32,000 nucleotides of DNA from IMG/VR virus record IMGVR_UViG_3300043811_000163, positions 56,534 through 88,533 of that record. One strand, given 5' to 3'. Positions within the stretch are counted from its first letter, which is position 1; every line of letters begins with the position of its first letter. This document shows, one piece after another, positions 6,491 to 8,500 of the stretch. The notes below the pieces were generated by a model, which saw nothing but the letters and a program-made list of their open reading frames with translations, was not told the origin of the DNA and ran no database searches. Source of the stretch: a virus. A program made the translations under genes and the position numbers.

Positions 6491-7241
6491 GACGAGCTTT
6501 CAGCGATTCAATTTCTGCCTTCAGCTTTCGGTTCTCGCGTTTGAGCGGGTCGATCTCCTCGGAGATGCGCCGGACGAAGTACGCAACGACCGAGCCCCAT
6601 TCGAACTTGTGGCCGTCGAGCTCGTTGATCATCGCGATCAAGGCGCACTGCGACTCGTCGGAGTGCCTCTTGTACATTGCTGCTGCCTCAGCCATTCGGC
6701 GGATCGTCCCGACTGGGCCATCGTCGCCTTCGATGTCGTGCTTGGCGATCTCGGCGAGAATATCCACCATTGTCGGCTTCGGCGCGCACGCCGATCGGCA
6801 TCCTTCGCATGGGCAGACGCACTCGCCAGGCGTCAAGCTACACGACGGATTGCATCCGCAGTGCTCAAGCGCCACATAATTTCTCGCGGTTCCACGGAAC
6901 TTGCTTGGTTTTTCTTCAGACGTCGGCGTGCACACGGGGCAAGGACGGCGATTGGCTAAGCACGACGGATAGTGGCACCCGGGAGTCGCGTGCTCCGGTG
7001 GATCGCACACAAACTTCGCGCCGCCGCACTCGGGACATGGGCCAGGACTGGCCTTCGCTTGATCGGGCACGTTCAGCGCGACGGCAGCCAAATGCCGCGC
7101 TCCGCCGGAGTGATTGTCCATAGCCTCCGCGATCTGCTGTCGGCAAACTTCGATCAGAGCATCGGTATAACGTTCGAAAGAGCGAAGCTTCCCCGGAGCC
7201 AAATCGATCGCGCGCTGTCGCAATTCATCGAAACGACTCAT
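6483..7241 (-). CDS. Cys-rich protein with a C-terminal coiled coil
   Basis: ATG 7241 forms an ATGA overlap with the stop of the PurA-like gene. Central CPECGG...C...CPVC...CGC..C...CVCPCEGC cluster. C-terminus ends KRENRKLKAEIESLK. Confidence 0.6.
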   Translation of the reverse strand: MSRFDELRQRAIDLAPGKLRSFERYTDALIEVCRQQIAEAMDNHSGGARHLAAVALNVPDQAKASPGPCPECGGAKFVCDPPEHATPGCHYPSCLANRRPCPVCTPTSEEKPSKFRGTARNYVALEHCGCNPSCSLTPGECVCPCEGCRSACAPKPTMVDILAEIAKHDIEGDDGPVGTIRRMAEAAAMYKRHSDESQCALIAMINELDGHKFEWGSVVAYFVRRISEEIDPLKRENRKLKAEIESLKARHG

Positions 7242-8500
7242 CTGAGCCACTCCTTGTCTTTGGCCATCGGCCCGAACGACAGGCACGCGATGGGCGCGCG
7301 CGCGTGCTTGCTCACGAGGTCTGGCACGTACTTGGAGGCCAGCGGAACTCGAACCGGCTCGACGCCTTGCAGGCAGGCCGCATTGGGCTCCAGCTGGTAG
7401 CGGAGTGGGACATCATAGAACACGCCGATCGGGACTTGCGCCGGCAAGCGATCCATCCGCGTGAGTGCGACTCCGTCGAGCCCGTCGATTGCTTCTGCCG
7501 CGTACCGGACCAGGGTCAGGTCGAGCAGACCGTTTCGGAAAGAGCCCTGCCACGGATTGCCTTGGTTGTGATCGTCTGCGGAAAGCACGTCGAATGTGGC
7601 CGTCTCGGTCGGGAAGGGACCGGCCCCGTGTCTCGTGTGATACGCGCGCAGGACGCCGATGCGGCGGACCGAGCCGAAGCGATCTCCGCAGAGCTCGCGT
7701 ACGTTGTCGAACGTGCACTTGCTCCATGTCGTGTGTGGGGAGAATCCGTGATCCTGGTCGAGAAGGACACCTTGCGCGCCCTCGAAGACGATGTGCCCAG
7801 GCTCTCGAATCTGGTCGTCGAGCCAATCGCGCTCGACAACCTTCACTTTCGCGAAGAAGTCGGCGTAGTAGTGCGCAGCGAGATCACACTCCATGAGATT
7901 GTTGAGGATCTCCATCTCTCGCCCCTGCGGCGTGTCAAACTCGGGGAAAGCGGGCCATCGAAATGTGGCCTCAAACTCTTCGCGCTTGCGCTTCTGAATC
8001 GACCGAAGCTTCGACAGCATCGTGTCATGGTCATCACCGGCTCGAATGACGTCCGAGAAGCCGGCGTCGAGGTCCAGCATGGTCTCGCCGATACCCATAC
8101 CGCAGCTGCCATGACGCGCCCCGAAGCGGAGCATCTCCCGTAGGCGGTTCGCCGCTACATGAAACGGCGTCGTGAGGATGGCGCCGCGTTCGACCGTCAG
8201 AAGCGACAGAGGATCGGAGACGCCTTTCTCGATCAGTCGCTTGGCTTCCGTCATCGCGAAGATCGGGTTGACGAGCATGAACCGAGAGAGATGGGTTCGG
8301 GCACCCGCGAACGTGCCCGAGCCCCACTGCGCGAAAACGTGACGGCGACCGTCGTCCAGACGAACTTCGTGCCCGGCTTGCGCTCCGCCATTGAAGCGGA
8401 CCACGAGACCAGCGCCGTGCTTGCGCACGAGAGCGTCGACGACGGAGCCCTTGCCCTCGTCGCCGAAGCCACAGCCCACGATTCCGACGAGGTCGCCCAT
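7238..8500 (-). CDS. Divergent adenylosuccinate synthetase (PurA/PurZ superfamily) paralogue
   Basis: Motifs GFGDEGKGSVVD (P-loop), RFNGGAQAGHEV, FEGAQGVLLDQDHG, AYHTRHGAGPFPTE and LTRMD. The nucleotide- and aspartate-binding loops are divergent. Confidence 0.85.
   Translation of the reverse strand: MGDLVGIVGCGFGDEGKGSVVDALVRKHGAGLVVRFNGGAQAGHEVRLDDGRRHVFAQWGSGTFAGARTHLSRFMLVNPIFAMTEAKRLIEKGVSDPLSLLTVERGAILTTPFHVAANRLREMLRFGARHGSCGMGIGETMLDLDAGFSDVIRAGDDHDTMLSKLRSIQKRKREEFEATFRWPAFPEFDTPQGREMEILNNLMECDLAAHYYADFFAKVKVVERDWLDDQIREPGHIVFEGAQGVLLDQDHGFSPHTTWSKCTFDNVRELCGDRFGSVRRIGVLRAYHTRHGAGPFPTETATFDVLSADDHNQGNPWQGSFRNGLLDLTLVRYAAEAIDGLDGVALTRMDRLPAQVPIGVFYDVPLRYQLEPNAACLQGVEPVRVPLASKYVPDLVSKHARAPIACLSFGPMAKDKEWLR

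Follow-up and report, generated by a model that had tools for sequence, protein, structure and literature searches.

A vWA-associated PurA-like branch with a rewritten substrate site in a viral genome fragment

The PurA-like gene and its partners

The virus record IMGVR_UViG_3300043811_000163 of IMG/VR was analyzed over a window of 32,000 nucleotides (positions 56,534 to 88,533 of the record). On the reverse strand of this window lie three adjacent genes, referred to here as the module, which encode a J-domain and kinase-like protein, a protein with a von Willebrand factor A (vWA) fold and a homolog of adenylosuccinate synthetase (PurA) (Table 1). Spacers of 15 and 3 nt separate the genes, the shorter one lying between the vWA stop codon and the PurA-like start codon, which are in the same frame. 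A first-pass annotation made from the letters alone had described the last gene as a PurA paralogue. The open reading frame (ORF) is present as described, and every motif that had been quoted, GFGDEGKGSVVD, NGGAQAGHEV, GSCGMGIGETMLD, FEGAQGVLLD, AYHTRHGAGPFPTE, NPWQGSFRNGLLD and TRMD, was found in its translation.

The PurA-like protein matches Pfam PF00709 with 192 bits (E 1.8e-56), and its best solved relative is E. coli PurA (E about 1e-35). An AlphaFold2 (AF2) model with 59 homologs as input reached a predicted local distance difference test score (pLDDT) of 92.8 and a predicted template modeling score (pTM) of 0.92. In Foldseek comparisons the model aligned with long bacterial and eukaryotic PurA structures at template modeling (TM) scores of 0.75-0.84, the value for E. 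coli PurA (1cg3) being 0.83. Both equivalog-level models scored below their cut-offs, with 154.2 bits against 402 for the NCBIfam PurA equivalog NF002223 and 134.3 bits against 395.6 for TIGR00184. Sequence identity was 27-30% to PurA, 19-24% to PurZ and PurZ0, and 30-59% within the protein's own branch. In a neighbor-joining tree, the vWA-associated PurA-like branch was monophyletic in 100/100 bootstraps, and PurZ/PurZ0 formed a separate clade, also in 100/100. The first-pass annotation had called for a check of the clustering with PurA and PurZ. The protein does not fall inside housekeeping PurA with the substrate contacts kept, nor with PurZ, and occupies a clade of its own. That it is neither a housekeeping PurA nor a PurZ is well established. 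The branch is apparently a third, distinct and undescribed branch of the adenylosuccinate synthetase superfamily. No published description of a vWA/J-kinase/PurA-like module was found in full-text literature searching, and a jumbo-phage comparative-genomics paper mentions neither PurA nor the module. In published phylogenies, phage sequences that are neither PurA nor PurZ figure only as "other PurA homologs" (PMC12884076).

The vWA fold of the adjacent protein, also named by the first-pass annotation, was shown by structure prediction. Sequence profiles (Pfam, PDB) gave no vWA match for this protein. Its AF2 model (pLDDT 89) matched integrin I-domains, SpaC and the vWA domain of Ku80 with a Foldseek probability of 1.0. 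The motifs of the metal ion-dependent adhesion site (MIDAS) are intact in the window protein (D71-x-T73-G-S75, E150/S151 and G181-D182-E183), and D71, T73, S75, E150, D182 and E183 are invariant across the vWA partners. The N terminus is conserved as well, reading M-G-G-S-S-Y-S-D-D-x-Y in the window protein and M-G-[GSY]-[SG]-x-[YW]-S-D-D-x-Y as a consensus. All 75 distinct partners from the collected loci begin with M-G-x-x-x-[W/Y/F], with His at the aromatic position in one of them. Among full-length database members, 252 of 268 have the MG start, and 244 of these 252 carry an aromatic residue at position 6. Because profile position 1 corresponds to residue 1 in nearly all matches, and because the annotation of phage Mangeria independently uses the same Met, the MG start is taken as the real N terminus. 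The first seven residues form an exposed coil in the AF2 model. At 50% identity the vWA partner family falls into about 2,200 clusters, and for 920 of them the representative reaches E <= 1e-30.

Two single entries of the vWA family deserve mention. In the homolog P0364, the conserved MIDAS strand is interrupted by an intein that contains a LAGLIDADG-type homing endonuclease (GY/LFxIGDE, the slash marking the exact insertion point); inteins typically insert at functionally critical sites. No natural fusion of a vWA and a PurA-like protein was found among the top matches. The 508-aa "vWA" entry P0437 was considered as such a fusion and rejected, since it is a frameshifted read-through from the vWA gene into the PurA-like gene next to it, located on a high-GC contig, and thus a gene-calling artifact.

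The remaining protein of the module proved to be J-domain and kinase-like, as the first-pass annotation had it. Its HPD motif lies at about residues 62-64, and at least 80% of 42 kinase-family members share it. PF00226 is recorded for several homologs, and PF00069 is likewise found on homologs. A public gene call starts 13 codons later and gives 359 aa (about 9512-10591). In the window protein the VAIK Lys, the alpha-C Glu and a DFG-like Asp ("IDW") are present, and the HRD motif reads "HGS". Every member of the family has HG[AS] at this position and so no catalytic Asp, and the catalytic-loop Asn is replaced by His. Only a closer subgroup, to which the window protein belongs, has the VAIK Lys and the DFG-like Asp; more distant members lack both. 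Because the catalytic Asp of HRD is missing, the protein is predicted to be a J-domain pseudokinase or an atypical kinase. Its role is most likely that of an adaptor that recruits DnaK. PADLOC returned generic kinase matches only for this protein and no match for the PurA-like or the vWA protein. On the other side of the module, a gene for a Cys-rich protein of the same operon overlaps the PurA-like stop codon. It is not conserved beside the module in other loci, which makes its membership doubtful.

The synteny of the module was counted over 91 loci with a PurA-like gene; a single-sequence locus search of isolate genomes had yielded 5 loci. A vWA gene was present in 84 of the 91, almost always immediately upstream of the PurA-like gene and on the same strand, and the loci without it were mostly cut near the PurA-like gene. 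The kinase-like gene was found in 43-44 of the 91 loci, where it either precedes the vWA gene or follows the PurA-like gene. Scanning IMG/VR by alignment gave more than 530 viral contigs with PurA-like relatives, many of them of jumbo-phage size. Members of the branch occur in Bxz1-like mycobacteriophages and Rhizobium phages, on jumbo-phage contigs and on some bacterial chromosomes. Among annotated relatives, the closest are found in Bxz1-like (cluster C) mycobacteriophages, as "PurA-like" genes. In Mangeria and other Bxz1-like phages the gene order is kinase, 339-aa hypothetical protein, small ORF and PurA-like gene, where the kinase and the 339-aa protein are homologs of the window kinase and vWA protein. 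The closest metagenomic relatives of the three window proteins were found on contigs of equal size, consistent with shared contigs. As a chromosomal cassette, the triad occurs in Labilithrix luteola, Kouleothrix and Streptomyces. In Kouleothrix (L096/L097) it is flanked by a small TIR_2 ORF and a PLDc_2 + LTD protein (5066-5308 and 10853-12334), domains that are often seen in defense islands. A sister subfamily from Nannocystis (L005-L007, 8001-9300) lies near genes for a PPK2 polyphosphate kinase and for proteins of unknown function and differs by Q224 to H, S240 to P and a loop reading W-Q-G-P-M-R. Hidden Markov model searches of six-frame translations found no vWA or kinase gene in the Nannocystis loci.

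Substrate site and relation to PurA and PurZ

The substrate site was compared in an alignment of the window protein, Salmonella PurA, phiVC8 PurZ, a mycobacteriophage homolog and 120 metagenomic relatives, and a second residue check on about 90 independently fetched loci gave the same pattern (E. coli numbering is used throughout). Essentially invariant in the branch are the P-loop GDEGKG with D13 and K16, H41, Q224, T239, D333 and S414. D13 and H41 are the catalytic base and acid, and D333 and S414 point to GTP rather than ATP as the nucleoside triphosphate. In the window protein, the aspartate loop TTGRRR reads PWQGSF, and further changes are N38 to Q, T129 to C, R131 to M, S240 to W and V273 to H, together with the absence of the trans-Arg143. 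Across the 120 homologs, T301 is replaced by W in 118, G302 by Q in all and R305 by F in 112, with R303 variable. The resulting branch-wide loop is x-[WFY]-Q-G-x-[FLIM] in place of T300-T301-G-R303-R-R305. At the 5'-phosphate site of inosine monophosphate (IMP), to which we take N38, T129 and T239 to belong as in the structural literature on E. coli PurA, Gln stands at position 38 in 119 of the 120 homologs and Cys at position 129 in every one, and T239 is kept. No conserved Arg was found at or near position 143, which in PurA is contributed by the second subunit. V273 is His in 120/120, position 131 is M, V or L, and position 240 is W or R, with Arg in many members. The near-invariant signature of the branch is therefore Q38, C129, H273 and an aromatic-Q-G-x-hydrophobic-R loop.

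The first-pass annotation had reported two rewritten segments, one at the IMP phosphate and ribose contacts and one at the aspartate loop. Both are real and near-invariant in the 120 homologs and the roughly 90 loci. Judged by the alignments, the new residues at the replaced positions are conserved as strongly as the catalytic ones, which is not a picture of decay. In PurA, R303 contacts the O2' of IMP as well as the aspartate and is needed for the binding of both, the trans-Arg pairs with the alpha-phosphate, and the equivalent of V273 adjoins the ribose C2'; the tip of the aspartate-contacting loop is conserved even in PurZ (PMC8342488). The residue pattern indicates that the PurA-like branch has kept the catalytic core and lost the aspartate pocket.

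A PurZ-type enzyme making the 2-aminoadenine precursor for a Z-genome phage, as the first-pass annotation had suggested, is effectively refuted. The gene is a phage-encoded PurA homolog, and both PHROG and RefSeq give the branch the PurZ-derived name "2-aminooxy adenylosuccinate synthetase", under which Mangeria gp264 and about 200 records of cluster C mycobacteriophages are filed (phrog_1211). However, Asp13 is invariant in the window protein and in all members of the branch, whereas the same alignment has Ser in phiVC8 PurZ, and a 2026 survey of 147 phage PurZ/PurZ0 sequences found this Ser in 100% of them (PMC12884076). With the NCBIfam model NF038379 the score was 36.7 bits, the cut-off being 300, and the match was confined to residues 7-62 around the P-loop. 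PurZ keeps N38, the T129 equivalent, the trans-Arg and the tip of the aspartate loop, none of which is kept in the PurA-like branch. The separate clade in the tree speaks against PurZ as well, and in Foldseek the PurZ/PurZ0 structures reached TM scores of 0.55-0.65 and ranked below every long PurA. In tBLASTn searches of the phage collection, the two proteins had disjoint sets of matches: the window protein found Mycobacterium phages (201 records) and Rhizobium phages, and phiVC8 PurZ found phages of Arthrobacter, Vibrio, Microbacterium, Acinetobacter and Gordonia. The observation of the first-pass annotation that the window holds no HD-domain or MazG-like gene was borne out in a scan of about 36 ORFs of the window with PHROGs or Pfam. 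A BLAST search for DatZ homologs found none, neither in the window nor in the about 90 fetched loci, and DatZ, MazZ and DpoZ partners are all absent from the 32-kb window. Viral PF00709 genes on canonical-adenine (non-Z) contigs have also been found to cluster away from PurZ (bioRxiv 10.1101/2025.10.22.683976). Because Asp13 is kept, the aspartate loop is gone and the Z-cluster partners are missing, the database name of the PurA-like genes is probably wrong, a PurZ name that was mis-propagated.

It is also improbable, though less so than the PurZ assignment, that this is an auxiliary metabolic gene for an ordinary adenylosuccinate synthetase, which would raise AMP production during infection and bind aspartate in a non-canonical way. 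Such an enzyme would agree with the PF00709 fold, with E. coli PurA as the best solved match, with the retention of D13, H41 and Q224, and with the database annotation as adenylosuccinate synthase. It is at odds with the equivalog score far below cut-off and with the branch-wide replacement of T301, R303, R305, N38, T129 and R143, among them the arginine required for IMP and aspartate (PMC8342488). The conservation of the branch-specific residues is of the degree expected under purifying selection and does not resemble decay, and AMP synthesis offers no role for the constant vWA partner.

Genomic setting and recurrent neighbors

In the window, the module is part of a long leftward operon in the early/replication region. 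The phrog_3657 protein, of unknown function, and the YqaJ/RecE-like exonuclease, both encoded upstream of the module in this operon (Table 1), may form a recombination pair that is co-transcribed with the module. Genes for helix-turn-helix regulators are also found near the module. The tRNA-Phe call in the tRNA cluster is doubtful, as its anticodon loop AGAAAAA has no U33. A megablast search with 25 kb of the window found no match among known phages, so the element itself is not one of them.

Table 1. Genes and other features of the 32,000-nucleotide window
Feature	Position	Strand	Evidence
Cys-rich protein, 252-267 aa, C-terminal coiled coil, several CxxC-like pairs	6483..7286	-	No family match
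PurA-like enzyme, 420 aa, ATG start	7238..8500	-	PF00709 match, alignment, tree, AF2 model
vWA (integrin I-like) protein, 330 aa	8504..9496	-	AF2 and Foldseek
J-domain + kinase-like protein	9512..10630	-	HPD motif, homologs with PF00226 and PF00069
Protein of phrog_3657, 544 aa	11704-13338	-	PHROG match
YqaJ/RecE-like exonuclease	13533-14426	-	Window scan
tRNA cluster: Phe(AAA), Ser(GCT), Cys(GCA)	21076-21320	+	ARAGORN; first and third confirmed by Rfam
DnaB-like helicase	23665-25182		Window scan
DNA methyltransferase	25663-27414		Window scan

Several kinds of genes recur near the module in the collected loci. ATP-dependent ligases were found in 13 loci and R2K-clade ATP-grasp proteins in 11. 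The "Swiss-army-knife RNA repair" HAD family (HAD_SAK_2), NAMPT and Nudix-NrtR proteins occurred in 7 loci each, and TROVE/Ro60 and calcineurin-like phosphoesterases in 5 each. The NrtR-type genes combine an intact REx2EE Nudix core with the NrtR winged helix and sit directly against the module in at least four different arrangements. NrtR and/or NAMPT or NMNAT-Nudix genes abutting the module were seen in a Streptomyces locus (L098, 6096-10220) and in L016/L017, L003, L015, L018, L048 and L059. In Streptomyces, the Nudix-NrtR gene overlaps the start of the kinase gene, giving a four-gene operon of NrtR, J-kinase, vWA and PurA-like genes. Rhizobium phage TM30 has an NMNAT-Nudix and a phosphoribosyltransferase gene near the module. 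RNA-repair-type genes (ligase, ATP-grasp, HAD_SAK_2 and TROVE/Ro60-vWA) stand beside the module in several viral lineages (L061-L064, L072, L073, L079, L081, L091, L094, L049, L050, L062, L092, L012, L067-L069 and L077). NAD-salvage and RNA-repair genes are of the kinds that phages use to rebuild NAD+ and to repair RNA. Their link to the module concerns a minority of loci and is to be read as associative.

Proposed chemistry and comparison with known systems

Beside the PurZ assignment, the first-pass annotation had placed a different acceptor or donor, possibly with participation of the vWA and J-kinase proteins. This part is supported by the synteny and by the replaced aspartate and 5'-phosphate contacts, more constantly for the vWA gene than for the kinase-like gene. 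From sequence and model comparison, the module probably encodes a distinct vWA-coupled ligase of the PurA family that uses an amine other than aspartate. With GTP as phosphate donor, the PurA-like enzyme would phosphorylate a hypoxanthine-type purine at its 6-oxo group (O6). This base is suggested by the retention of Asp13, since Ser at this position lets PurZ accept guanine, and a ribonucleotide is suggested by His273, which adjoins the ribose. The activated purine would then be passed to a non-acidic amine that is not free aspartate. The vWA partner would replace the second PurA subunit at the active site, a placement at the dimer interface that is suggested by the loss of the trans-arginine from the second subunit. 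The J-domain protein would recruit host DnaK for assembly or remodeling of the complex. Because NrtR/NAMPT and RNA-repair neighbors recur, the module may be deployed during infection within a metabolic-rescue or counter-defense set of the phage.

The favored amine would be the free alpha-amino group of vWA Gly2 after removal of Met, an excision that is favored by Gly at position 2, and the product would be an N6-linked nucleotide-protein adduct. Gly2 as the nucleophile is the weakest step of the proposal and, taken by itself, rather doubtful, no more probable than ammonia, the main alternative amine. It would be economical because glycine has no side-chain carboxylate and so makes the lost arginines unnecessary, because the new aromatic residues of the PurA-like loop could pack against the aromatic residue at vWA position 6, and because the classic ligand of the PurA aspartate site, hadacidin, is a glycine derivative.

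Several observations weigh against a vWA-coupled ligase of this kind. The Nannocystis subfamily has the rewritten loop yet no vWA or kinase gene nearby, so the chemistry does not always depend on the partner, which favors a small-molecule amine over Gly2. T239 and Gln38 could still hold a phosphate, and with Arg240 in many members plain IMP becomes a possible substrate. The kinase-like gene is missing from about half of the loci. The NAD-salvage and RNA-repair neighbors, being limited to a minority of loci, may reflect shared "accessory" regions. Finally, cellular copies exist, so a host-side role in defense or stress response is possible.

An unlikely alternative to the vWA-coupled ligase is that the enzyme is a direct aminase in which only ammonia fits, converting IMP (or ITP/dITP) to AMP (or ATP/dATP). 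It would rebuild the adenylate pool, for example once host deaminase defenses or defenses that degrade ATP have acted, with the vWA and J-domain proteins as regulators. The branch-wide loss of the carboxylate-binding arginines and the bulky W301, Q302 and F305 that fill the old aspartate pocket would fit such an activity, as would Asp13 and Q224, which suit a hypoxanthine base, the setting among the metabolic-rescue genes NAMPT, NMNAT-Nudix and NrtR, and the Nannocystis subfamily without vWA. In related SIMIBI enzymes, CTP synthase among them, O-phosphorylation is followed by reaction with ammonia. Direct amination leaves the near-obligate vWA partner and the invariant N-terminal Gly-x3-aromatic motif unexplained, however, and no glutaminase or ammonia-channel partner accompanies the module. 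The 5'-phosphate site has moreover lost positive charge, where a triphosphate substrate would call for the reverse.

Slightly less likely still than direct amination is a function outside purine ligation. The module could be a non-enzymatic GTP switch or chaperone pair in the manner of MoxR-vWA. Alternatively, it could be a cassette for toxicity, abortive infection or superinfection exclusion, in which triggering of the vWA sensor makes the effector consume GTP or produce a toxic nucleotide. A switch would agree with the placement of PurA among the SIMIBI NTPases, a group that also contains metallochaperone GTPases. Pairs of vWA proteins and NTPases are also common as chaperone or sensor systems (PMC7824862). 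A cassette would agree with its presence on chromosomes of bacteria outside any phage context, in one case close to TIR and PLD genes, and with the weak matches of the kinase-like protein to defense kinases. Yet a pure switch has no need of the purine-chemistry residues D13, H41 and Q224, which are invariant. PADLOC, as noted above, is silent on the PurA-like and vWA proteins, and the module belongs to the core of strictly lytic Bxz1-like phages and of jumbo phages, beside genes of counter-defense type.

Phage homologs of PurA are currently sorted as either "PurA" or "PurZ". The third branch is large and has a rewritten substrate site and a fixed partner, and since more than 200 easily handled mycobacteriophages carry it, its chemistry is directly testable. 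Whichever non-aspartate amine is used, the reaction would be new for the PurA fold. If a vWA-coupled ligase does form an N6-linked nucleotide-protein conjugate, this would be a type of protein modification not described before, and together with the DnaK-recruiting J-domain pseudokinase it would serve phages against host immunity that targets NAD or nucleotides. The repeated adjacency to NAD-salvage and RNA-repair genes suggests an unrecognized component of phage counter-defense or metabolic rescue.

Among known systems, MoxR-vWA and TerY-P resemble the module in that a MIDAS-containing vWA gene stands beside an NTPase gene and, in many loci, a kinase-like gene. In MoxR-vWA the NTPase is an AAA+ ATPase, whereas here it is PurA-like. 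TerY-P consists of vWA, Ser/Thr kinase and PP2C, whereas no PP2C phosphatase was found among the recurrent neighbors of the module and the kinase lacks the catalytic Asp and has a J-domain. The module vWA protein further differs by its own N-terminal MG-x3-aromatic motif and by escaping the Pfam vWA models. Membership in TerY-P and MoxR-vWA is ruled out by the absence of PP2C and of an AAA+ ATPase. The NAD+-salvage and RNA-repair cassettes of phages are recurrent neighbors in several unrelated lineages and have no homology to the module. PurZ/PurZ0 is likewise a phage-borne offshoot of the PurA superfamily with an altered substrate site and shares its database name with the PurA-like branch. 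In contrast to that branch, PurZ is of the short archaeal type, has Ser at position 13, often uses ATP and travels with DatZ/MazZ/DpoZ or DutZ/DmtZ. The closest likeness in fold is to long-type PurA (EC 6.3.4.4), with which the PurA-like branch shares the P-loop, Asp13, His41, Gln224, Thr239, Asp333 and Ser414, and from which it is set apart by its replaced aspartate and 5'-phosphate sites, its score below the equivalog cut-off and its vWA neighbor.

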